Shown here piece by piece: positions 9,168 through 61,504 of a DNA stretch of 64,000 nt (positions are counted from its first letter, which is position 1; the number at the start of each line of letters is the position of its first letter). Made by a program: the position numbers and the translations under genes. Source of the stretch: a bacterium (GTDB lineage: Bacteria; Patescibacteriota; Saccharimonadia; CAILAD01; BJGX01); contig JAKOQC010000249.1 of the NCBI GenBank assembly GCA_029778565.1, positions 45,611-109,610 on the forward strand, given 5' to 3'. The notes below the pieces were generated by a model that searched no databases, was not told the DNA's origin, and was given only the letters and a program-made list of their open reading frames with translations.

Positions 9168-10553
9168 ATGAAAAAAACCGCAGCAATTTTGGCTGCCAAA
9201 GTAGTTAAGTCGGCATCACGCATAAAAAAAACCGCAGCCACAGCTGCTCCGGGTTATTTGGCTGAGCGGATTGATCCAAACCTGTTAAAAAAGTTGGGTA
9301 GCATTAATTTTCCTGATGGTGTTGTGTTGGTTACAGGTACAAATGGTAAGACTACTACGACAAAGGTATTAGCCGACGTCTTGCGAAATGGGGATATTTC
9401 TTTTGTGAACAATCGCGCCGGTTCTAACCTGAGCAGAGGTGTTATTAGCTCGATACTGACCGAAGCGAATTTAAGAGGTTTTACCCAGGCACGCGTTGGA
9501 TTATTTGAGGTAGATGAAGCCTATTTACCAGAAGTGGCTGCCGCCCTACAGCCCAAAATGGTGGTGGTGACAAATTTATTTCGAGATCAACTTGATAGAT
9601 ATGGAGAGCTGGATAGTATTGCCAATAAGTTTCGGCAAGCGTTTAAGAATCTGCATTCTACTACTTTGGTCTTGAATGCTGATGATCCATTGGTGGCTAG
9701 CCTTGGTATGAAACTCAGTGGAAGTCTAAAGGTCTTGTACTTTGGTATATCTGATAAGTCGGCTTTTAGGGCATTACAACACGATAACAGTGCCGATAGT
9801 ATTGTTGACCCATTTAGTGGTGATACATTGCGCTATACACACCGGTATTTTGGCCATATTGGTCTTTATACTACCAAATCACATTCGTTTAGCCGACCCA
9901 AGCCACAAATAAATGTTACTAAACTAATAAAATCTAGTGAGAAAAGTATAAAAATAAATGTAAAAACTACAACGGAATTACTTTCCGTATCTGTAAATCT
10001 TTCAGGAAACTATAATATATACAATGTTCTGCCAGCATTTGCCACGGCACAATTATTTAGAATAAATAACACCATAGTTTTGCAGACACTTGCCAATCTT
10101 AGTGCTGCTTTTGGTAGAACCGAGGCAATGCAAATAGATAAGACAATTTTCGACCTTTATCTAATTAAAAATCCAACAGGTTTTAACCAAGTGATACAGT
10201 CATTTATACAGAAAGACTCTAAATGCCCACTTATACTTGCTATTAACGATAATATTGCTGATGGACGTGATGTATCTTGGTTGTGGGATTGTGCAATTGA
10301 AGATTTTGCATCTAGAGTAGGCCCCGTAATTCTTACAGGCACCCGGGCTCTGGATATGCAACTCCGGCTAATATATGCTGGCTATAAAGGCAAGATAATA
10401 ACCGAGACAAATGCCAAAAATGCACTTAAAACTGCTCTTGGGTTGGCAAAGAATAATCGAGTAATAGTACTTCCTACATATACTGCTATGTTATCTCTTA
10501 GATCTCTTATTAATGAAGCCAACGATGAAACCAGCAAGGAGTTTTGGCAATGA
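9168..10553 (+). CDS. murT: lipid II isoglutaminyl synthase, Mur ligase subunit
   Basis: VTGTNGKTTT, NLFRDQLDRYGE, KNPTG, DGRDVSWLWD, PTYTAM. Confidence 0.93.
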   Translation: MKKTAAILAAKVVKSASRIKKTAATAAPGYLAERIDPNLLKKLGSINFPDGVVLVTGTNGKTTTTKVLADVLRNGDISFVNNRAGSNLSRGVISSILTEANLRGFTQARVGLFEVDEAYLPEVAAALQPKMVVVTNLFRDQLDRYGELDSIANKFRQAFKNLHSTTLVLNADDPLVASLGMKLSGSLKVLYFGISDKSAFRALQHDNSADSIVDPFSGDTLRYTHRYFGHIGLYTTKSHSFSRPKPQINVTKLIKSSEKSIKINVKTTTELLSVSVNLSGNYNIYNVLPAFATAQLFRINNTIVLQTLANLSAAFGRTEAMQIDKTIFDLYLIKNPTGFNQVIQSFIQKDSKCPLILAINDNIADGRDVSWLWDCAIEDFASRVGPVILTGTRALDMQLRLIYAGYKGKIITETNAKNALKTALGLAKNNRVIVLPTYTAMLSLRSLINEANDETSKEFWQ

Positions 10554-11266
10554 GAAAACTACGAATTTTACACCTATATCCTGATAGGATGAACATTTAT
10601 GGTGATATGGGGAATATTATTTGCCTACAAAAACGTATGGACTGGTTTGGCTTAAAGCATGAATATATTACCAACACTGTAAGTGAAAAGCTGAGTGGTA
10701 AGTTTGACCTTATTTTTATGGGAGGTGGGCAAGATAGGGGGCAGATAGCTGTAGGGAGTGATTTACAAACCAAACAAGCGATTATTAAAGATCATATTAA
10801 CTCTGGTGTACCAGCTTTGACTATCTGTGGTGGTTATCAGTTATTTGGTAAATACTTCCTTACAAAAGATTCGGGAAAAATAGAAGGAATAAGTGTGTTT
10901 GATGTTGTAACAAAAGCAACAGAATTGAGAATGATAGGTAATATCGTCTGTGTAAGTGACGAATTTGGTACAATTGTCGGGTTTGAGAATCATAGTGGCG
11001 CTACACAACTTGGTGATAGTGCTCAACCACTAGCTAAGGTAATAAAAGGCTATGGAAATGATGGTAAATCTGGTTTTGAGGGGGTAATTTATAAAAATGC
11101 CATTGGTAGCTATCTTCATGGCCCGCTCTTACCTAAAAATCCTTCTCTAGCAGACTTTCTTATTGGCACAGCGGCCCGAAATATTGATAAGCAATTTATA
11201 TTAAAAAACATTGACGATAGTGTAGCTATGCTAGCAAATAGTTATGCTCAAAAATTACCACAGTAG
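10550..11266 (+). CDS. gatD: lipid II isoglutaminyl synthase, glutaminase subunit
   Basis: YGDMGN, GGGQD, ICGGYQL, GFENHSG, YLHGPLLPKNP; ATGA overlap with murT. Confidence 0.93.
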   Translation: MRKLRILHLYPDRMNIYGDMGNIICLQKRMDWFGLKHEYITNTVSEKLSGKFDLIFMGGGQDRGQIAVGSDLQTKQAIIKDHINSGVPALTICGGYQLFGKYFLTKDSGKIEGISVFDVVTKATELRMIGNIVCVSDEFGTIVGFENHSGATQLGDSAQPLAKVIKGYGNDGKSGFEGVIYKNAIGSYLHGPLLPKNPSLADFLIGTAARNIDKQFILKNIDDSVAMLANSYAQKLPQ

Positions 11267-50319: not shown

Positions 50320-50718
50320 ATGCTTTCACAACGTTCTGTCATACTACTTTCTATATTTGGGCTCGTTTTTTCATTTATTATCTCTACTCTAGGGGTGGTA
50401 TATGCCTTATTTACGTATACGCCTGCTAAATTGGGTCCAGCGGGTATTACTTTTTGGTTTATTGGCATACTAATAAGTGTAGGAAGTGTTATAGCTTTGC
50501 TTGGTTTCTTGTGGAAGTTACGTCACGAAGAACATCGTTTGACCGCTGCAAAGGCACTTACTAGCTCTTTGCGTACAGGTTTCTTGGTGGGTTTTACGGT
50601 ATCGATTTTATTGGCTCTCTCGAGTTTGAGAAGCCTAAGTATTCGTGATATTATCTTATTTATTCTTGTAGTAGTGGTAATAGAAATCTATTTTCGTACC
50701 AGAAAGAAAAGAGTATGA
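50320..50718 (+). CDS. four-TM membrane protein
   Basis: Hydrophobic helices; ATGA-coupled to pheS. Confidence 0.75.
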   Translation: MLSQRSVILLSIFGLVFSFIISTLGVVYALFTYTPAKLGPAGITFWFIGILISVGSVIALLGFLWKLRHEEHRLTAAKALTSSLRTGFLVGFTVSILLALSSLRSLSIRDIILFILVVVVIEIYFRTRKKRV

Positions 50719-51701
50719 CCTCACAGAACGACATAATTAAGGCCCTAGAGGCTGATTTAGTGCAAGCGAGCAACGAGCATGCAATTGCGCAAGTTAAATC
50801 TAAATATCTTGGTAATAATAGTTTTATTTCTGAGCAACTTCGCTTGTTGCCAGGCTTAGCCCCAGAAGAAAAAGCCCAAAAGGGTAAAGAGCTGAATATT
50901 CTCAAAAACCAGATAGAACATGCAATTACCGAGGCACGCGAGCAGTTATTGTCATCACAGCAATTTCCAATAAAAGACATATCTCTGCCAGGGCAGAGAT
51001 TTAAGCAGCCCTATGGGCATATGCATCCTGCGAGTAGGGTGTTACAAGAAACCTATAAGATATTTTCAGATTTAGGCTTTGCGGTGGTAGATAGCGGCGA
51101 GATAGAGACTGATTGGTATAACTTTGAGGCTCTTAATATGCCCGAAACTCACCCGGCGCGTGAAATGCAAGACACATTTTATATAAAAAACAATGGCAAG
51201 TTAGATGTTTTGCCCCGTACGCACACGTCTGGAATGCAAGTACGGTTTATGGAGGCAAATAAACCGCCATTTAAAATTATTGTACCTGGCAGGGTGTTTC
51301 GGAATGAAGACGAAGACGTTACTCATATTTGGGCTTTTCATCAGATAGAAGGCCTGGTTGTGGGCGAGGGGGTATCGATGGCACAGCTAAAGGGAACATT
51401 GCTACATGTTGTGCAGGGAATTCTAGGGCCAGAGGCTGACATTCGTTTTCGGCCTAGCTACTTTCCGTACACCGAGCCATCTGTAGAGCTCGATTGTCGT
51501 TATAAGGGTCAGTGGTTAGAGTTGGGTGGAGCAGGAATGATTAACCCTGTAGTACTGCAAAATGGTGGTATAGACCCCGAAAAATATACTGGTTTTGCCT
51601 TTGGTTGGGGTGCTGAGCGAATCGCTGCTATTAAATATGGGCTCGATGATTTACGCGAGCTGTGGCGACCACGCTTTGAATTTTTGGAGCAATTTGTATG
51701 A
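50715..51701 (+). CDS. pheS: phenylalanine--tRNA ligase alpha subunit
   Basis: NFEALN.PE.HPAR.MQDTF, RTHTS, FHQIEG, RPSYFPYTEPS, GFAFG.G.ER. Confidence 0.97.
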   Translation: MTSQNDIIKALEADLVQASNEHAIAQVKSKYLGNNSFISEQLRLLPGLAPEEKAQKGKELNILKNQIEHAITEAREQLLSSQQFPIKDISLPGQRFKQPYGHMHPASRVLQETYKIFSDLGFAVVDSGEIETDWYNFEALNMPETHPAREMQDTFYIKNNGKLDVLPRTHTSGMQVRFMEANKPPFKIIVPGRVFRNEDEDVTHIWAFHQIEGLVVGEGVSMAQLKGTLLHVVQGILGPEADIRFRPSYFPYTEPSVELDCRYKGQWLELGGAGMINPVVLQNGGIDPEKYTGFAFGWGAERIAAIKYGLDDLRELWRPRFEFLEQFV

Positions 51702-54481
51702 AAGTAAGTATACAATGGCTTAATAGCTATCTAAAAGAAAGACTTTCGACTAACGAAATAGTAGCCGCACTAGAACGCACCGAAGTTGAGATAGAAGAAG
51801 TTATTACACCACCAAAGCTAGATAAAAAAGTTATTACTGCCAAAGTGGTTAATGTAATAGACCATCCAAATGCTGATAAACTTAGGCTCGTTGATATTGA
51901 GTTTGGTAAAACAAAACGCCGGGTTGTATGTGGCGCGCCAAATGTTCGAAAAGGTTTGGTAGTGGCATATGCTCAGCCAGGCAGTGTGTTGCCAGAGGAT
52001 TTTGTTATTGGTGAGAGAGAAATTCGTGGTGAGAAATCGGCCGGCATGTTGGCCTCGGCGAAAGAGCTTGGCATGGGTAATGATCATAGTGGTATAGTAG
52101 AGCTCGACCCTGATCTCCCCCTTGGAATATCATTGTGCGACATAGAGAATATGGCCGATATTGTGGATGTTAAGACGCCAGCAAACCGATGGGATTTATT
52201 GTCGGTTTTGGGTTTGGCGCGCGAAATTTCTGCTAATTCTTCTAAAAATCAGGTTGTAGAACCAAAACGTGAGAAAATAGAATATAAAAACAGAGAAGTG
52301 GTGAAAGTCAAGGAAACTGGGGAGTGTGAACGATTTATTAGTGCGGTATTTAAAATTGATAGCAATGCAGAGACACCGGCTTGGATTGTGGAAAACTTAG
52401 AGGCGGCGGGGATGCGAGCTATACACCCCGTTGTAGATATTACTAACTTTGTCATGTTAGAGACTGGACAGCCTAGCCATGCGTATGACAGTAAAAAACT
52501 CAAGGGTGCTTTGCAAGTGCGTTTTGCCCGGGCCGGTGAACTCCTCTCTACTTTGGACGGGGTTGAAAGAAAACTGACAAAAGAAGATTTAGTTATTGCT
52601 GATAATTCCGGCGCAATTGGATTGGCGGGTGTAATGGGTGGAGCAAGTAGCGAAGTAAGCACTCAAACTCAAGAAATTGTACTAGAAGTTGCTAATTTTA
52701 ACAAAACCACTGTTCGTAGAAGTGCACTGCGCCATGGTTTGCGTTCTGAGGCGAGTACTCGATTTGAAAAAGGGCTACCTCTCCCTCTTCCCTGTTTCGC
52801 TTTTGAGCGAGCTGCGCAGTTACTTAAAGAAATTTGTAAGGCCGAACTTATTGGAGACGTAAATGATCAATTATATGCTTGGCCGTGGATTTCGTTTGTT
52901 GGTTTGCGTCAACGTCGCGCAGAAATGGTACTGGGTACAAAGCTGAATGAAAAAGAAATAATTGAAGGGTTGCGTGCGCGTGGGTTTAGTGCAGAACACT
53001 TTTCTCTTTCTGCCGAGGCTAAAAAACATCTTGGCAAGCCATATGTATATGGTGCTAGCTTTAAGAAAAACGGCGAAGAAGCTTTTGACTGTTCATATTT
53101 AGTAGAGAGAATATATTCAAAAATTGGGATTGCAATTGGCCATACTGCTCAGCAACAATTTAACTCTGGAAAGCCTGTCGAAAAAGATAATCTCAAACCT
53201 GGAGATTTAGTGTTTTATTCGGGTCATTGGGAAAAATTAGACGCCAAAAGCCGTGGCGATATTGGACATGTGGGGATGTATTTGGGTAAAAACCAAGTTA
53301 TTGAGGCAAGTGAATACGAGTTTGACACCAAAATTGGCAAGTATATAAAACGCAAAACTGCCGACGTACGCTATACTACGCTTGATAGTTATACGAGCAA
53401 TCCTACTTTTAAAGGTGCGCGACGGTATACTGAGAGCTTTAATCATATTATTGCTGTTGTTGCTCCCTGGTGGCGTACTGATATTGTAAAAGAAGTTGAT
53501 TTAATTGAAGAAGCCGCCAAAATATTGGGGTATGAAAATATGCCGAGCAAGTTGCCCGAATTACCGCCTATGGAAACGGCAGATCATCAAATGTTACCTG
53601 GATTAATGGGTATGCGCGAAGATTTAGTAGCTGCAGGATTATTTGAAGTAACTACGTATTCATTTGTTAGCGAGCAAGACTTGCTTGATACTCATATTGA
53701 TCCCACGAGTGTGTTGGCAATAGAAAACCCAATGAGCAAAGAACAGGCCTATTTACGTAACTCGCTTTTAAGTAGTCACCTACAGACAGTAGCTCGTAAT
53801 AATACATTCTATGAAAAAGAATATGGTTTTTTTGAGCTTGCTCGAATATACGAAAAATCTCCCCGCTCTAAAACATTAGCCCAAGAGAGCTGGCGACTAG
53901 CGATCTGTGCAGTTGGTAAAAACGGTCTCGAAAGGATAAAAAGTGTGCTCGATATGTGTGAAAGTCGCTACCAACTAAGGTTGGCGTACAAGCGCAGTGA
54001 AGAAGCCAATTTCTTACCCGGCCGAACAGCCACCCTACAGAGCCAGAGAATACCTGAAGTTAGGGGATTATATGGACAGGTTAAACCTATTTGTCTAAAA
54101 AAATTCTCAATTAGTGATGAGATAGTGTTTGCCGAAATTATATTGCCTGATCAGTCTATTTTTGCAGAAAGCACCCAAAAATCGGTGTCCCTTCTCCCCT
54201 ATCAGCTTGTTAGCCGCGACCTTACGCTCGAGTTACCCAATGAAGTTCTTTGGCAAAACATTGCATTGATTGTAAAATCGCAGAAACGTATATCTCGGGT
54301 GCAATTTCTACAGGAATTTGCCAGTGAAGAATTAACAAAAACAAATAAGAAACGGGTGAGTATGCGAATTTGGATTGATTGCGGGGCTAATCCTAGCCAA
54401 AAAGAGATAACAAAATATATGAGTGCTATAGAAAGTACCTTACTTGCTGACAAAACGCTAAAGCAAGTCAAAATAGTCTGA
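51698..54481 (+). CDS. pheT: phenylalanine--tRNA ligase beta subunit with inserted NlpC/P60 domain
   Basis: HPNADKL, CGAPN, RG..S.GM, VVDITN.VM.E.GQP.HAYD, RFEKG, P..R.DI...DLIEE, NP...EQ..LR; extra ~145 aa at ~53001-53430. Confidence 0.95.
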   Translation: MKVSIQWLNSYLKERLSTNEIVAALERTEVEIEEVITPPKLDKKVITAKVVNVIDHPNADKLRLVDIEFGKTKRRVVCGAPNVRKGLVVAYAQPGSVLPEDFVIGEREIRGEKSAGMLASAKELGMGNDHSGIVELDPDLPLGISLCDIENMADIVDVKTPANRWDLLSVLGLAREISANSSKNQVVEPKREKIEYKNREVVKVKETGECERFISAVFKIDSNAETPAWIVENLEAAGMRAIHPVVDITNFVMLETGQPSHAYDSKKLKGALQVRFARAGELLSTLDGVERKLTKEDLVIADNSGAIGLAGVMGGASSEVSTQTQEIVLEVANFNKTTVRRSALRHGLRSEASTRFEKGLPLPLPCFAFERAAQLLKEICKAELIGDVNDQLYAWPWISFVGLRQRRAEMVLGTKLNEKEIIEGLRARGFSAEHFSLSAEAKKHLGKPYVYGASFKKNGEEAFDCSYLVERIYSKIGIAIGHTAQQQFNSGKPVEKDNLKPGDLVFYSGHWEKLDAKSRGDIGHVGMYLGKNQVIEASEYEFDTKIGKYIKRKTADVRYTTLDSYTSNPTFKGARRYTESFNHIIAVVAPWWRTDIVKEVDLIEEAAKILGYENMPSKLPELPPMETADHQMLPGLMGMREDLVAAGLFEVTTYSFVSEQDLLDTHIDPTSVLAIENPMSKEQAYLRNSLLSSHLQTVARNNTFYEKEYGFFELARIYEKSPRSKTLAQESWRLAICAVGKNGLERIKSVLDMCESRYQLRLAYKRSEEANFLPGRTATLQSQRIPEVRGLYGQVKPICLKKFSISDEIVFAEIILPDQSIFAESTQKSVSLLPYQLVSRDLTLELPNEVLWQNIALIVKSQKRISRVQFLQEFASEELTKTNKKRVSMRIWIDCGANPSQKEITKYMSAIESTLLADKTLKQVKIV

Positions 54482-54536: not shown

Positions 54537-56039
54537 ATGCCAAAATCGCCAAAACCCGATAGTCAACCATATGCTCACCGCTTTGCACTACCAAAGTCGC
54601 TAAGTAAATCTGGGCAAAAACCAAGTATGCTGGCTCGAATGCAGTTTGTGGTTCTTGGTGCACTTTTGGCTTTTTTGTGTATTAACGGAGCTGTAGCCGC
54701 TGCGCTAACTGGCAGAATTTATCCTGGCGTATCTGTAGCCGGACACGATTTAAGCTTTAAAACTCGCGCCGAGGCGATGCAGACTTTACGGCAAATCCAA
54801 ACCAAGCGAAATTTTACCCTCAAAGTAGGTGATAAAGTATTTACTACTACTGATGCCGAGCTGGGATCGAATTACGATCTCATAACTACAGCCAATACTG
54901 CCTATAGTGTCGGCAAAAATGCAGCCTTGCCAGTTTTTGGTATCTTTACCAGTGAGCGAAATGGACAACTTGGTCTTGCATACAATTTAGATTTGGTAAA
55001 ACTAAAGGCTTTCACTTCTTCTGTGGTACAGTCGGTTGGCCACGATCCTATTAATGCCACATTGGTAATAAATGAAGGGGTAATAACTGATCAGCCCGAC
55101 CAAGATGGACTACGTATAGATCAAAAAGCACTTAATCAAATAATTCAGTCGGCACTTAGTGATGGCCAAGATGAAAATATTACCTTGCGACCAGAAGTGC
55201 AAAAAGCCGATATCCAAGTGGCCGATTTAGCACCGGCGCGAGCGAGCGCCGAAACTCTGTTGAGTAAACAAATAATACTATCCTATAATGGTAAAAATTT
55301 TGTGGCCGATAAAAACGCTATTGGTCATATGATAGTTTTTGAAGCTCAAGATGGAGCTGATGGTAAAAAACACTTGGTAGCCAAAATATCTCCAGAACAA
55401 GTTGCTGGCTATGTACAATCGGTTGCTAATCAAATAAACATTGCACCCAAAAACAAGATAATAACGGTAGCCAATGGCACTAGTTCGGTTACACAAGAAG
55501 GCGTAGATGGTTTGGCAGTTAATCAAGATCCGGCAATTAATGCAATTGTAGCCGGGCTCAATGCCAATCAGGATGTTAGTTTTAGTCTAACAGCTTCTCC
55601 AGTAGCGTTTAAGACGCAGACCAATGCTTTTGGTGGAATTGGTGGATTGGACTATCCGCAGTACATTGAGGTTTCTCTGCGCCAACAGCATTTGTGGGCT
55701 TGGCAAGATGGTCAAGTAATCTTTAATGCCCCAATTACCAGTGGTGCTACTGGTGCAGGTTTTGGAACAGTAACAGGGACCTTTGCGATTTATGCCAAAG
55801 AACGCAGTCGATATCTTAATGGTGCACAATATGGTTATAACTATAATGTTTTTGTTGATTACTGGATGCCATTTTATAACGGTTACGGATTGCATGATGC
55901 CGACAGGTGGCGCTCAAGCTATGGTGGCCAGGACTATTATTATGGTGGCAGCCATGGGTGCGTAAATATGTCAGGTAGTTCAGCGGCATTTTTATATGGT
56001 TGGGCACCGATTGGTACACCTGTTTGGGTGCATAGTTAA
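54537..56039 (+). CDS. L,D-transpeptidase with PG-binding repeats
   Basis: N-terminal TM, IYPGVSVAG, YWMPF...GLHDA..SHGCVN. Confidence 0.9.
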   Translation: MPKSPKPDSQPYAHRFALPKSLSKSGQKPSMLARMQFVVLGALLAFLCINGAVAAALTGRIYPGVSVAGHDLSFKTRAEAMQTLRQIQTKRNFTLKVGDKVFTTTDAELGSNYDLITTANTAYSVGKNAALPVFGIFTSERNGQLGLAYNLDLVKLKAFTSSVVQSVGHDPINATLVINEGVITDQPDQDGLRIDQKALNQIIQSALSDGQDENITLRPEVQKADIQVADLAPARASAETLLSKQIILSYNGKNFVADKNAIGHMIVFEAQDGADGKKHLVAKISPEQVAGYVQSVANQINIAPKNKIITVANGTSSVTQEGVDGLAVNQDPAINAIVAGLNANQDVSFSLTASPVAFKTQTNAFGGIGGLDYPQYIEVSLRQQHLWAWQDGQVIFNAPITSGATGAGFGTVTGTFAIYAKERSRYLNGAQYGYNYNVFVDYWMPFYNGYGLHDADRWRSSYGGQDYYYGGSHGCVNMSGSSAAFLYGWAPIGTPVWVHS

Positions 56040-56568: not shown

Positions 56569-59073
56569 ATGAACCAATTTGTCATTTTTACTAGTATTTT
56601 GTTTCTGCTATTTGCCAGTGGTATATCTGTCTTAGCATATTTTTTGTTGCGCAAACGTGCACGGCATAGCAAAGATATTGAACGATCTCTGAAGATGGTA
56701 CCACTATTGGTCAAGCTTCCACCTCAAGAAGTAGGTGAAGATGGACGTGACAGCCGAGAGCTTATTAAAGAAAACATTGCCAAGGCTGAAGGTGTGTTTA
56801 ATTTATTAAGTGGTATAGCGACCGAAAAAGCTTCATATTATGGCAAAAAATACATTAGTTTAGAAATTATTGCTGAAGGAAAGTTGATTAACTTTTATAT
56901 TGTAGTACCCGTCAGTCTACTGAGTGCTGTGCAAAAAGCCCTAGTAGCCGGATATCCCAATGTACAGATAGAAACCGCCCAAGAAACAAATATATTTTCT
57001 GACAAAAGCAAAATAGCTGGTGTGCAGGGCGGTGAATTAGTCTTAGCTAAAGAAAGTATCTACCCTATTAATACCTACAAATCCACAGACTTCGACCCAT
57101 TGTCTGGTATACTCTCGGGACTAACCAACTTGGGCGATGGTGAGGGTGTGGGGATACAAATTCTTATTCGTCCGGCGGGAAGTGACTGGACTAAATATGC
57201 CCTAAAGCGTAGTAAAGAACATTTAGACCCGAGTAGCTCAGAAAATAAAGCCCTTAGTTTTGGCTCGGATGTATTGAAAGCACCATTTAAAGCACCAAGC
57301 TCGAGTGACAATGATAAAAAACCCGATAAACAACCCACTGCTATCGACCAGCGCAAGAGTGAGACAATCGAAGATAAGGCAAAATCGCCCGCTTTTGAAA
57401 CATGTATTCGTTTAATTGCTAGTTCTGACAATCCAGCACGTGCTCATGTAATGATTCAAGATTTACAACTTGGGTTTGCTCAACTCAGCCAGGGCGGCAG
57501 TAATGGTTTTAAATATCAAAGTGCTGATTCACCACAAGAAATTGCCACAAATTTTATTTTTAGATTCTTTCCTGTTGCCAAAAAGAAGAATGTATTGAAT
57601 GCGGTCGAACTCGCTACGATTTTTCATCTGCCAAGCGAGGTAATTGGTATTGCAACACAGCTCGAACGCAAAGCGGTAAAAGAAGTAGCTGCTCCAGCCG
57701 GTCTTCCTACGGAAGGCCTGAGAATTGGTGTAAACGAATATCGAGGGACAAACACACCGATCTATATTACCCAAGATGATAAGCGCCGCCACATTTACAC
57801 CATTGGTCAGACAGGAACAGGTAAATCAACCATGCTTACTAACTTAATGCTCCAAGATGCATATGCTGGTAAGGGTTTTTGTTTTATCGACCCAAATGGT
57901 GACGAGGCTGAGAAGTTTTTGGGACGAATTCCGGCTAATCGCGCTGAAGATGTCATTTACTTCAGTCCGGGAGATACAGAATTTCCTCTAGGGTTTAATA
58001 TTATGGAGTACGATCGTAATCACCCCGAACAGCGCGACTTCTTGGTGCAAGAAGCAATTTCAATGCTATATAAACTCTACGATCCGCAACATCAGGGTAT
58101 TATTGGCCCACGGTATGAACACTGGTTTCGAAATGCTGCTCTCACCGTTATGGCCGACCCAGAAGGTGGTACATTTATAGAAATACCAAAAGTATTTACT
58201 GACGATGAGTATTTAAAGAAGAAATTCAAATACGTTACCGACCCAACGGTGCAAGACTTTTGGACGGGTGAGATGGCTCAGACAGATGCACATTCTAAGA
58301 GTGAGATGCTAGGATGGTTTGTTTCAAAATTTGGTGCGTTTGCTAATAACGCCATGCTTCGCAATATTATTGGCCAGAAGACTTCAGCATTTAACTTCCG
58401 TCAGATAATGGATACCAATAAGATTTTGATTGCCAACCTCAGTAAAGGTTTGCTTGGTGAGTTGAATGCCAAATTGCTTGGTATGATATTTGTGATTAAG
58501 TTACAAATGGCAGCTATGAGTCGGGCCGATACACCCGAAGATCAGCGTGTAGATTTTGCTCTGTATGTCGATGAGTTTCAGAATATCGCTACCGATAGTT
58601 TTGCTACAATTCTTTCTGAAGCCAGAAAATATCACTTTAATCTTATTGTAGCCAACCAGTATATTGAACAAATTGATGAGCAAATTCGCGATGCGGTATT
58701 TGGTAATGTTGGTAGTATGATTATTTATCGAGTAGGTAATGATGACGCTGAGTATATTGCAAAACAATTCTCACCACAGTATGATGCCAGCGATATCGCC
58801 AATATCCCTAATCACTACGCTGCTGCTAAGATTATTGCTGATGGTATTCCCACAACCCCATTTAGTTTGCATGGTGACCCGCCGGTTGATGGAAATGTTA
58901 TTAATACTAATTTGCAGAATGCTATGCGCGATCTTTCTCGAGCTAAATACGGACGACCAAAAGCAGAGGTTGATGCTGAAATTGCTCGGAGCCTGAGTGA
59001 CAGTTTACCCACCGAACCAGCGGGTGGCGACGCAGCTGCTGGTGGTATGGGTACAGAACAGACTGGAAATTAA
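56569..59073 (+). CDS. VirD4/TraG/HerA-like membrane P-loop ATPase
   Basis: RRH.Y.IGQTGTGKS, IDPNGD, LYVDEFQN, SEARKY, ANQY..Q. Confidence 0.88.
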   Translation: MNQFVIFTSILFLLFASGISVLAYFLLRKRARHSKDIERSLKMVPLLVKLPPQEVGEDGRDSRELIKENIAKAEGVFNLLSGIATEKASYYGKKYISLEIIAEGKLINFYIVVPVSLLSAVQKALVAGYPNVQIETAQETNIFSDKSKIAGVQGGELVLAKESIYPINTYKSTDFDPLSGILSGLTNLGDGEGVGIQILIRPAGSDWTKYALKRSKEHLDPSSSENKALSFGSDVLKAPFKAPSSSDNDKKPDKQPTAIDQRKSETIEDKAKSPAFETCIRLIASSDNPARAHVMIQDLQLGFAQLSQGGSNGFKYQSADSPQEIATNFIFRFFPVAKKKNVLNAVELATIFHLPSEVIGIATQLERKAVKEVAAPAGLPTEGLRIGVNEYRGTNTPIYITQDDKRRHIYTIGQTGTGKSTMLTNLMLQDAYAGKGFCFIDPNGDEAEKFLGRIPANRAEDVIYFSPGDTEFPLGFNIMEYDRNHPEQRDFLVQEAISMLYKLYDPQHQGIIGPRYEHWFRNAALTVMADPEGGTFIEIPKVFTDDEYLKKKFKYVTDPTVQDFWTGEMAQTDAHSKSEMLGWFVSKFGAFANNAMLRNIIGQKTSAFNFRQIMDTNKILIANLSKGLLGELNAKLLGMIFVIKLQMAAMSRADTPEDQRVDFALYVDEFQNIATDSFATILSEARKYHFNLIVANQYIEQIDEQIRDAVFGNVGSMIIYRVGNDDAEYIAKQFSPQYDASDIANIPNHYAAAKIIADGIPTTPFSLHGDPPVDGNVINTNLQNAMRDLSRAKYGRPKAEVDAEIARSLSDSLPTEPAGGDAAAGGMGTEQTGN

Positions 59074-59152: not shown

Positions 59153-61504
59153 ATGAAAATCGTAAATTTCCGAGATGTCGTCACTAACTTTAAGATTGGT
59201 GGCATCTCAAAAAACAAAATCTCGTTCTATGCCAAACGTCTTACTAAGGAAACTTCAGCACGACGACTGGCTTCACTACTTTTAGTCGGCCTATTAGTAT
59301 TCCAGTTTATTACGTTTATTGCTCCACCATCAGCTGGGCGGGCAGCAAGCTGTACGTCGAATGACATTATTAACTGTGGTATTGGTGATAGAAGTAACCA
59401 AGGTGTTTTAAATGCATTCAAAAGTACTGGTGCGATACAGCTTCTATACCAGGCAGGTGTTACCGATAATGATGTTTTAAATGGCCAAGCCAATGCTAAT
59501 ATTTGTCGTACACCTGGCCTGCTTTCGATGGGTCGAACCCAAGCGCCGGGATCATTCTTATATCCGGGTCATAATGACATATGGATTGGTGATGCGAGTA
59601 GCCGCTGGCTACAAAACTGTTTTGCAGGTGAATTACTGAACGTAAAAGTACAGGGTAGCACAATAGGTACGGGTGATCCCAATGCTTGGTACCAAGTAGG
59701 TATTCTCTACGACTGTGGTAACTTGGTATTTATTCCCACCTCGCCACATCAACAACCAAAAACCATTACCTGTTCAAGCTTGAATGTCTCTAGCTTTACA
59801 GCTACTGTTGGTCAACCAATCGTAGTTGCTGGTTATGCACACGGAGACAACATTAGTGCTGGCGAGTTAGTCGATATGGCCTATGGCGCCTATGATAGCG
59901 GTACTAATAACCTAGTAGGAGGTATTCCCCAAGGAAATCCCCTGGGGGCACAAGGTGTACCGCATGATGCAAATAATAACTTTATTGATAATGCTGGGCG
60001 AGCGTTTACCTTTAATCAACCAGGTACCTACGATCTTAGACTGCTAGTTGGATATGATAATAATGGGCAAAAATTGTTTGCCGCTGGTAGTGCTGCCGGA
60101 GATTGCGCTCGTACTGTTACTGTTACTCAACAAATGACATTACGATGTGCACAGCTAGATATTGTCGCCAAAACTGGCAATACGCCATTTACTCCAGGCC
60201 TAAAAGGCACAGCAGGCGTTGATGGTACTTCGGGTACAAAACCCTATCCTTCTAAATTCGAATATATTCTTTTGCAGAAATATACAGGCCCAGACAATCC
60301 AAGTTTGCCGATTGTTACCTATAACGGTGTAAAGTATTTAGAAGGTAATCCTAGTGGCGGGACTACTCGAATTACACACACCAATGCCAATCCTGCGGTC
60401 TATACCGACCCCGCATCTAGTCCAGCTTTCTCTGCTACAGAATTCAAACAAACTACACCAGGTGATTTCTTAATTATTCTCCGAGTAACCGACCAGAATA
60501 ATACAACTGCGCCAGAGAATCCAAACAACTGTTTTGTACCATTTACTACCACCCCTCCACCTGCAGAGTTTGCTTGTAAAACTCTCACTGCTGACCCTGC
60601 TACAGGTACCGCTCCACTGAAGGGAGTAAATCTAACCGCAACTGCAACAGTCAAAAATGCAGTGGTTAAATCGTACCAATTTGACTTTGGTGATGGCAGT
60701 GCTAAACAAACAGTTACGAGCAGCCAACTTACCGCCTCTACAAAACACGACTATAACAATCCGGGTAAATACACAGCGACTGTTAGTATAACAACCGATA
60801 GGGGTACCACGACAGATACCCAAACGTGTAAGACGGTTATTAATCCAACACAGGTGCAATATACGAAAAATGTAGCCAATATGACCCTGCTTACGAATGA
60901 CGGCAAACCCACCGACGCGAATAATCAGGTAGCAAAAGCCGGAGATACATTGCGCTACCAAATAGCAATTTGTAATGCTAATGGTGCACCCATTAATAAC
61001 TATGTATTCGAAGATGATGTAACCGACCTATTGTATTATGCTGATTTGGCAGACTTGGGCGGTGCTACCAAGGTAGTTAAAAATGGACAGACCAAGCTTG
61101 TCTGGCCTGCGACCGATATTGCCTCGTTGCCGAATGGAAAGTCATGTACTGATAGCTCAGGAAATATTATTCCAGCTAACTTTAGTGCACACTTTAAATC
61201 ATTTACTGTTAAGGTAAAAGATCCTATTCCAACCAAACCAAATGTACCACTCGACCCATCGGCCTACGATTGTAATATACAAGATAATTTCCATGGCTCT
61301 ATCGTTACTACTCCAATTGGTGTAGTACCAGCCAAACAAGTAGAATGTGCTGCGCAAAAATTACCACAAACTGGTGCAGGCATACCAATCTTTGTTATTT
61401 CGTTCTTTGCCGCGAGCTCAGTATTCCTATTCTTCCGCAACAGATTACTCAAACGTGAGCTAAAACTGGTCGAAACATTATCTGATGATGAAGGAGGCAT
61501 GTAA
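59153..61504 (+). CDS. PKD-domain surface protein with LPQTG sortase-type anchor
   Basis: Signal peptide, Cys-paired Ig-like domains, FDFGDG PKD, LPQTG + TM + basic tail. Confidence 0.8.
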   Translation: MKIVNFRDVVTNFKIGGISKNKISFYAKRLTKETSARRLASLLLVGLLVFQFITFIAPPSAGRAASCTSNDIINCGIGDRSNQGVLNAFKSTGAIQLLYQAGVTDNDVLNGQANANICRTPGLLSMGRTQAPGSFLYPGHNDIWIGDASSRWLQNCFAGELLNVKVQGSTIGTGDPNAWYQVGILYDCGNLVFIPTSPHQQPKTITCSSLNVSSFTATVGQPIVVAGYAHGDNISAGELVDMAYGAYDSGTNNLVGGIPQGNPLGAQGVPHDANNNFIDNAGRAFTFNQPGTYDLRLLVGYDNNGQKLFAAGSAAGDCARTVTVTQQMTLRCAQLDIVAKTGNTPFTPGLKGTAGVDGTSGTKPYPSKFEYILLQKYTGPDNPSLPIVTYNGVKYLEGNPSGGTTRITHTNANPAVYTDPASSPAFSATEFKQTTPGDFLIILRVTDQNNTTAPENPNNCFVPFTTTPPPAEFACKTLTADPATGTAPLKGVNLTATATVKNAVVKSYQFDFGDGSAKQTVTSSQLTASTKHDYNNPGKYTATVSITTDRGTTTDTQTCKTVINPTQVQYTKNVANMTLLTNDGKPTDANNQVAKAGDTLRYQIAICNANGAPINNYVFEDDVTDLLYYADLADLGGATKVVKNGQTKLVWPATDIASLPNGKSCTDSSGNIIPANFSAHFKSFTVKVKDPIPTKPNVPLDPSAYDCNIQDNFHGSIVTTPIGVVPAKQVECAAQKLPQTGAGIPIFVISFFAASSVFLFFRNRLLKRELKLVETLSDDEGGM

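Follow-up and report, generated by a model that had tools for sequence, protein, structure and literature searches.

The closest described relatives of the element reported here are the P60-type DL-endopeptidases (MEROPS C40), among them Acd24020 (PDB code 7cfl) and CD1368 (8v3w_H) of C. difficile and CwlO and LytE of B. subtilis, and the YkfC/dipeptidyl-peptidase VI enzymes (B. cereus, PDB code 3h41). A preprint (bioRxiv 10.1101/2022.11.17.516864) describes chlamydial YkfC as a cytoplasmic NlpC/P60 member recycling stem peptides in a reduced genome. The element analyzed here is an NlpC/P60 domain, termed the insert, that lies inside PheT, the β subunit of phenylalanyl-tRNA synthetase (PheRS), of an ultra-small bacterium from the Patescibacteriota class Saccharimonadia. 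The window is the 64,000-nucleotide stretch of contig JAKOQC010000249.1 (assembly GCA_029778565.1, positions 45,611 to 109,610 of the forward strand) that was analyzed, and coordinates are window positions. G000 is the genome under study, and labels beginning with L, G, C, P, and X denote loci, genomes, contigs, proteins, and bridging contigs.

The insert has in common with the P60-type DL-endopeptidases the fold (Z-scores of 15-18), the Cys-His-polar triad, and the Tyr/Asp/Ser γ-D-Glu site. In contrast to these enzymes it has no signal peptide, LysM, or SH3b domain, it is nested in a cytoplasmic synthetase, and it shows an Arg to His replacement, a Tyr after the Cys-Ser pair, and additional loops both between the GD strand and the catalytic His and beyond the third catalytic residue. 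The insert resembles YkfC in its likely location in the cytoplasm and in a plausible role in recycling (Z-score of 17.4 to 3h41). The SH3b domain with its conserved Tyr118 is absent, with no SH3 family among the seven Pfam matches and with B5 as both flanks, and Thr483 occupies the position of YkfC Asp256. In PMC2954226, the SH3b domain and Asp256 are the defining features of the free-L-Ala-specific YkfC subfamily; judged by its sequence, the insert may work like YkfC and is no member of that subfamily.

Bacterial PheRS β subunits from E. coli (PDB codes 3pco and 6oz5) and T. thermophilus (1pys and 2iy5) share all domains with PheT, and B5 superposes at 1.1-1.4 Å, whereas in the G000 protein a B5 loop of 12-25 residues is swapped for an enzyme domain of ∼145 residues. 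No PheRS chain among the structure matches listed aligns to the insert. ProRS INS and the cyanobacterial CAAD are further accessory domains inserted in synthetases. The editing domain of LeuRS, as described in PMC13114784, is likewise a foreign domain at a tolerant synthetase position with free-standing homologues. Such accessory domains are editing or membrane-anchoring modules, whereas the insert comes from an enzyme family of the cell wall and is exchanged, inactivated, or deleted from lineage to lineage. A term search of PMC13114784 gives no match to nlpc. The insert falls in none of the sequence families of the tRNA editing deacylases (YbaK/INS, AlaX, DTD, and B3/4). Inteins and homing elements also combine a fixed site in an essential gene with patchy presence, decay, clean loss, and apparent re-acquisition. 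Unlike inteins, the insert has no Hint domain, no splice motifs (N-terminal Cys/Ser, C-terminal His-Asn), and no homing endonuclease, and it stays folded with a conserved active site; on these sequence features it is neither an intein nor a known editing domain. Databases label such proteins merely PheT or C40 peptidase, and no published description of an NlpC/P60-in-PheRS architecture was found in a search that left supplements and most subscription journals outside. A wall-type peptidase with intact catalytic residues nested in a core translation enzyme thus appears to be a new arrangement of known parts.

Structure and Active Site of the Inserted Domain

The gene pheT is one uninterrupted open reading frame that overlaps the stop codon of pheS, and a single copy was found in the G000 genome. 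The arrangement of the operon and of the domains around the insert is as follows.

50715..51701, + strand: pheS, PheRS α subunit, 328 amino acids (PF01409, PF02912), overlapping the start of pheT
51698..54481, + strand: pheT, PheRS β subunit, 927 amino acids (TIGR00472, 566 bits against a cut-off of 403)
52886..52999, + strand: N-terminal half of B5, residues ∼397-434 (aligned in the model, together with the C-terminal half, to E. coli B5 402-475; DSSP)
53000..53434, + strand: NlpC/P60 domain in the B5 hairpin, residues ∼435-579 (Pfam, alignments, model)
53435..53545, + strand: C-terminal half of B5 with R593, D595, D601, E604, and E605 (Pfam, model alignment, conservation)

The NLPC_P60 family (PF00877) matches PheT residues 446-541 with an E-value of 5.8e-18 and 65.2 bits (cut-off 23), and the only Pfam families on the insert are NLPC_P60 and Peptidase_C92. 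In the rest of PheT, Pfam identifies tRNA_bind (residues 45-144), B3_4 (210-381), and tRNA_synthFbeta (616-814); it sees only the C-terminal half of B5 (582-612), and the FDX-ACB (B8) match is weak (835-911, 22.4 bits, below its own cut-off). The PheRS β set of B2, B3/4, B5, B6/7, and B8 is nevertheless all present, in an operon with pheS, and the insert sits where most relatives without it have a loop of 12-25 residues.

The AlphaFold2 model of residues 396-616, built from 64 sequences, has a predicted local distance difference test score (pLDDT) of 93.8. Residues ∼435-579 form a papain-like α+β fold that aligns to 7cfl with a Z-score of 18.2 (root mean square deviation (rmsd) 2.4, 123 residues aligned; Foldseek E-value 7.5e-10) and to 3h41 with a Z-score of 17.4 (rmsd 2.3, 119 aligned), the closest solved structures all being peptidoglycan DL-endopeptidases. 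The two flanks jointly align to B5 of E. coli PheRS (6oz5_B) with a Z-score of 14.0 (rmsd 1.1, 74 aligned), and the modeled B5 regains its normal fold from both halves around the insert. By sequence, fold, and catalytic residues the insert is a member of the NlpC/P60 family. The domain scan and the structure prediction therefore bear out the original prediction, made from the DNA letters and their translations, of an NlpC/P60 domain inside B5 of a 927-residue PheT, and the positions that it gave for the catalytic Cys and His are those of the alignment.

53042..53044, + strand: Tyr449, equivalent of YkfC Tyr226 (oxyanion/γ-D-Glu site; alignment, PMC2954226)
53087..53098, + strand: Asp464-Cys465-Ser466-Tyr467, catalytic Cys and S1 residues, with Tyr467 as subtype signature (alignment)
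53090-53092, + strand: Cys465 codon, predicted catalytic residue
53138..53149, + strand: Gly481-His482-Thr483-Ala484, replacing the family Pro-Arg-x-small motif, with YkfC Arg255 changed to His (alignment)
53267..53269, + strand: His524, catalytic histidine (alignment)
53303..53305, + strand: Glu536, third polar triad position, which is H/E/Q/M/T/D among relatives (alignment)

The Cys-His dyad, the third polar residue, and the oxyanion Tyr are thus all present (Cys465, His524, Glu536, and Tyr449). In Xu et al. 2010 (PMC2954226), the γ-D-Glu site consists of Tyr226, Asp237, Ser239, and a small residue at 257 in YkfC numbering, and the strictest γ-D-Glu class needs a Trp at 228, where the insert has Tyr. 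The S1 equivalents in the insert are Tyr449, Tyr451, Asp464, Ser466, and Ala484, corresponding to YkfC 226, the hydrophobic position 228, 237, 239, and 257. In the G000 subtype, counted with 12 degenerate inserts left out, the Tyr, the Asp, and the small residue 257 are each kept in 68/68 and the Ser in 66/68. Across 139 non-degenerate domains of all contexts, Cys, His, Tyr, and Asp show no or almost no variation.

The site residues of the host protein are conserved too. R593, D595, D601, E604, and E605, presumably the Mg site, are invariant in all 65 insert-bearing PheT sequences of the class, and N250, P259, and H261, presumably the editing site, are kept in 64, the remaining one being a gapped fragment. 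The conserved PheT residues are identical whether the insert is present or absent.

Assembly and Splicing

The G000 bin is oversized (2.25 Mb in 633 contigs compared with 0.4-1.0 Mb in relatives, 1.24 Mb of it in contigs under 10 kb) and likely contains foreign contigs, an oddity that would suit an insert produced by chimeric assembly; a self-splicing element lost from the mature protein or RNA would be a related explanation. The chimera is refuted, and the self-splicing element is rejected as highly improbable. Among 29 database matches, 22 are other protein clusters from independent sources with the same architecture and 36-88% identity to G000 PheT, and 65 loci carry the insert at the same site. 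Contigs of three other studies cross the junctions (X10 and X16 the 5′ junction, X11 the 3′ junction), which answers the concern over the junctions with contigs rather than reads; contig X5 covers the whole insert region but is possibly the source assembly itself. The GC content over the insert (0.38-0.42) is similar to the surroundings, and the contig of the window agrees with small-genome relatives despite the oversized bin, those relatives of the region that bear names being Ca. Saccharibacteria metagenome-assembled genomes. The continuous frame without splicing motifs noted originally is upheld by the single open reading frame and by the lack of any intein or Hint family among the seven Pfam matches; in addition, Cys-less copies reside in the sole, essential pheT, and B5 refolds around the insert in the model. 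Suspected foreign contigs in the bin are C144 and C389, which carry murC, and C439 (34% GC), which carries a second NlpC/P60 gene.

Distribution among Patescibacteria

The class of G000 was surveyed at 100 pheT loci, chosen rather than random and with 2 unscorable, of which 65 contain the insert and 33 do not. The Cys is kept in 52/65 inserts and the His in 53/65, a conservation that, together with the confirmed junctions, runs counter to both conditions named as refuting the original prediction; the Cys is lost in 13/65, and dead copies occur in at least three separate lineages. The insert is absent from close relatives of its bearers and is patchy even within one genus (g28, three with and four without). 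Insert-less PheT proteins of this genus (L074, L075, and L081 in G154, G133, and G120) have loops of 28-40 residues compared with 16-17, and these are perhaps scars of imprecise loss.

In a sample of about 373 genomes from other classes, at least 12 have the insert at the same site. In a second class, of Parcubacteria/Paceibacteria type as judged by protein names, 42/301 genomes match, with 20 copies inside PheT at the same site with the usual Pro-Arg motif and 22 outside PheT. The PheT insertion is known from at least three classes, and PheT fusions make up 62 of the best 150 representatives in a search of 1.84 billion proteins.

Selection and Cassette Exchange

The insert is under purifying selection. 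The ratio of nonsynonymous to synonymous substitution rates (dN/dS, NG86 method) is 0.03-0.18 in those intact pairs whose dS is unsaturated (9 of 17), similar to the backbone, and 0.065 for the pair G000/G001. In three dead pairs it is 0.13-0.22, indicating that the fold is maintained even as the active site decays.

The inheritance of pheT is mosaic. A backbone tree of 169 rows with the insert columns removed (FastTree) mostly tracks families and implies 16 or more gains or losses of the insert, whereas the domain tree, with the 12 degenerate inserts excluded, cuts across families. In approximately unbiased (AU) tests on 38 sequences, with each tested group drawn from the tree of the other partition, the insert data reject four backbone clades (p-AU of 1e-6, 0.002, 0.003, and 5e-5) and the backbone data reject two insert clades (4e-9 and 1e-7). 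This mutual rejection indicates that the cassette recombines between pheT genes. A recent tract is seen between G036 and G029, with 93-100% nucleotide identity over codons 401-625 compared with 57-92% upstream (dS of 0.13 compared with 1.28), and in G040/G129 the identity drops to 48-63% over codons 476-575 compared with 59-89% elsewhere. Conservation in the N-terminal third of the insert, which holds the Cys, exceeds that of the backbone, and the C-terminal two thirds are variable and swapped; S′ sites are said to vary across the NlpC/P60 family in PMC2954226. The intact allele of G008 is nested among dead ones in the tree. Homologous recombination through the conserved flanks is the simplest reading of these exchanges. 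For these lineages pheT is a mosaic marker, and its case shows an essential gene hosting a cassette that lineages exchange, inactivate, and remove with no mobile-element machinery involved.

Stand-alone Copies and Fusions

The domain survives beside monomeric PheRS, a mitochondrial-type enzyme of about 380 amino acids that is the only PheRS in several Patescibacteria families (observed at L147, L152, L154-L158, L163, L165, L172, and L190 and in genomes G261, G702, and G731). In family f177 (14 genomes sampled), 9/9 matches are genes of ∼150 amino acids directly upstream of, and often overlapping, a monomeric PheRS gene that encodes the catalytic domain and FDX-ACB. In G802 the order is reversed, with the monomeric PheRS gene followed by a 232-amino acid frame in which the domain stands between two B5 remnants and which nests with a PheT insert in the tree. 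Five of five monomeric-PheRS genomes tested have no B3/4 domain, with one PheRS catalytic domain each. The root support of the domain tree is weak (33), and a direction between insert and stand-alone copy can be read from it for G802 only.

Of the 22 stand-alone copies in the second class, 12 lie away from any PheRS gene. A separate free-standing family of ∼200 amino acids with B5-like ends around the NlpC/P60 domain forms one long-branched clade (100 SH-aLRT) and occurs with either PheRS type.

L116:5551-6147, L118:5194-5778, L119:5254-5880, L177:2391-3002: ∼200-amino acid B5-like family

In 30/30 stand-alone copies the catalytic domain begins within about 30 residues of the start, too short for an export signal; in PheT, Pfam finds no signal peptide, membrane anchor, or wall-binding domain, and the highest 19-residue hydropathy is 1.28 (both checks of export use hydropathy and no dedicated predictor). 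Fusions occur to Tyw3 (2 clusters, grouped with a PheT insert in the tree at 96 SH-aLRT) and to TrmD and QueH (single clusters each); together with a fusion to DUF218, these are seen in P0175, P0212, P0205, P0171, P0203, and P0204. Stand-alone copies also lie on a contig with reverse transcriptase and archaeal TFIIB genes (L187:184-3282) and divergent from an Asp/Glu racemase gene (L189:4-1081). A complex prediction of the stand-alone domain with the neighboring monomeric PheRS scores 0.00 and is evidence neither way.

The persistence of the domain when the rest of pheT is lost indicates a selected function independent of the PheT scaffold. The insert behaves like a self-sufficient unit with PheT as its carrier, because the domain persists without PheT, PheT works without the insert or with a dead copy, and exchange is independent of the backbone. 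On the same observations, the original proposal of a synthetase that moonlights as a link between translation and muropeptide sensing finds no support; the two functional guesses that accompanied it, muropeptide recycling and a tRNA-directed hydrolase, are still the two leading readings.

Predicted Function and Alternatives

The preferred reading is that the insert is a predicted cytoplasmic peptidase for stem-peptide salvage, a proposal with about an even chance of being correct. An autonomous folded NlpC/P60 domain, carried in the surface hairpin of B5 and exchanged between pheT genes, would act in the cytoplasm as a γ-D-glutamyl peptidase on salvaged peptidoglycan stem peptides or precursors. 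The insert is probably catalytically active, and the host protein and the stand-alone relatives without signal peptide point to a cytoplasmic location. By analogy with YkfC and most of the family, cleavage would fall after γ-D-Glu, and the purpose may be to feed MurE and MurF with pieces that the cell cannot make (the diamino acid, D-Ala-D-Ala, the dipeptide stage). PheT would serve as a carrier that tolerates the insert, is essential, and is always expressed, and its conserved flanks would permit allele swapping, probably with no catalytic coupling to aminoacylation. If so, the insert is a candidate for the enzyme that supplies D-Glu, the diamino acid, and D-Ala-D-Ala to Patescibacteria in which peptidoglycan pathways are broken.

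The genomic setting relevant to salvage centers on the Mur genes and on a C39-like peptidase, the commonest other partner of the domain, to which it is fused in 8 of 120 listed matches.

L306:6074-8067 (G000:C213): murF, then C39-like peptidase gene (PF13529), with Cys and His kept in 7/7 aligned
9168-11266, + strand: murT/gatD-like pair (MurT_C, Mur ligase middle domain, GATase_3)

In the second class the C39-like gene comes next after pheT in 8/19 loci with an insert; it stands immediately after murF in G000, G001, and G019 and beside a Mur ligase gene in G034, G102, and G066, whereas in the dead-insert genome G004 (L309) the slot behind murF holds ddl and a class IV aminotransferase gene. 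G000 encodes MurE, MurF, and MurT/GatD-like genes, its MurC is on a 4.3-kb contig that possibly does not belong to the organism, and Ddl, MurI, and DapF were not found in the 93% complete bin; a tblastn search with the Mur ligases of G000 and a motif scan, which together make a weak test, found no MurD. G001 and 12 other intact-domain genomes have one or two Mur_ligase_C matches only (MurE- and MurF-like in G001); MurC and MurD may be absent in these 13 genomes, where divergent copies could have escaped. If the MurT/GatD-like pair amidates D-Glu, the Arg to His change of the insert might suit D-isoGln substrates, and enzymes of the RipA type presumably also have His at this position.

Several observations weigh against stem-peptide salvage. 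Arg255 is mostly replaced in the G000 subtype (His in 50, Tyr in 6, Phe in 5, Glu in 2, and Arg in 5 of 68) compared with retention in 30/31 other PheT inserts and in 40/40 stand-alone or fused copies, and a Tyr directly follows Cys-Ser in 64/68 of the subtype. Missing are the SH3b domain and Asp256, which prevent YkfC from attacking the precursors of its own cell, and this leaves unexplained how the insert would spare such precursors. Ddl is present in 13/52 intact-insert genomes, 3/10 dead-insert genomes, and 23/32 genomes without insert. This complementarity is a trend only and is not significant once kinship is considered (six independent pairs, 2.4 with and 0.3 opposed, median p of 0.5), and the dead-insert genomes have Ddl no more often. 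The glutamate racemase gives 4/36 compared with 9/19 with PF01177 (hand count), a complementarity that failed with TIGR00067 for MurI, in independent pairs, and in the second class (8/42 compared with 57/259, hand count). Mur ligase domains are present in 57/57 genomes whatever the insert state, and a loss of the Cys through lost wall synthesis was rejected on this count. The C39-like gene is optional, being found in 2/11 newly tested intact genomes, 2/7 without insert, and 0/7 with a dead one, and was thereby ruled out as an obligatory partner. The fusions of the domain clade to Tyw3, TrmD, and QueH, the link to PheRS that persists in two gene orders, and the copy on a contig with archaeal TFIIB point the same way; to our knowledge, archaea make no peptidoglycan. 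These failed or weak correlation tests, the contrast between murF-C39-like and murF-ddl, and the statistical case for cassette exchange are what the present analysis adds.

The salvage reading has to be weighed foremost against a domain repurposed as a PheRS- or tRNA-linked hydrolase, which would strip tRNA of D-amino acids or of N-blocked or other incorrect acyl groups, for example, or cleave an amide in a modification or an inhibitor. This is a serious though unlikely alternative, drawing on the PheT insertion in three or more classes and 62 of the best 150 representatives, on the adjacency or overlap with the monomeric PheRS gene (upstream in the 9 f177 genomes, downstream in G802), on the fusions to the tRNA(Phe) methylase Tyw3, TrmD, and QueH, and on the monomeric PheRS enzymes without B3/4. 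DTD and YbaK were not found in 5/5 genomes tested, but they are missing also where the insert is dead or absent. The adjacency may be a remnant of an eroded pheT, as the B5 remnants of G802 suggest, the 12 second-class copies away from PheRS genes do not share it, and the TrmD and QueH fusions are single clusters in small genomes, where translation genes are common. The γ-D-Glu pocket is conserved, and with an invariant tRNA as substrate a fast turnover of alleles would be unexpected. Pth is present in 56/56 genomes and the editing and Mg-site residues of PheT are intact, so no translation function is obviously missing, and the idea that the insert makes up for the loss of Pth or of the editing site was rejected. 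It seems possible, but rather doubtful, that Patescibacteria and some archaea have turned a peptidoglycan-peptidase family into hydrolases of a new class that act on tRNA or PheRS and travel in PheT as a recombining cassette; translation quality control would then have gained an enzyme of a new kind.

A resistance or conflict module, in which the peptidase detoxifies a peptide or aminoacyl-adenylate-like inhibitor of PheRS or of wall synthesis and its alleles follow an arms race, would be analogous to MccF, which detoxifies microcin C. The mosaic inheritance in the AU tests, the recent G036/G029 tract, the repeated decay, and the intact G008 allele among dead ones would suit it; the dN/dS values of 0.03-0.18 give no sign of diversifying selection, recombination between conserved flanks can be neutral, and we know of no inhibitor that would fit, making this module improbable. 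The domain could also be mostly a tolerated passenger or structural appendage in which catalysis is no longer relevant, as the 13/65 Cys-less inserts in three or more lineages with core and low dN/dS kept, and the many relatives without the domain altogether, might suggest. The near invariance of the catalytic residues in the 139 non-degenerate domains and the keeping of the domain as its own gene when pheT is lost argue otherwise, and a passenger role is quite improbable. Natural live, dead, and stand-alone versions make the domain easy to assay.

Neighboring Genes

54537..56039, + strand: YkuD L,D-transpeptidase gene downstream of pheT (Pfam; conserved synteny, independent of the insert)

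The YkuD match agrees with the original identification of the next gene as an L,D-transpeptidase. The gene also adjoins pheT with a dead or no insert, so this neighbor says nothing about the insert. Further downstream, window positions 59153-61504 (+ strand) encode a predicted surface protein of 783 amino acids with a PKD domain, following a TraD/TrwB-like ATPase gene (56569-59073).

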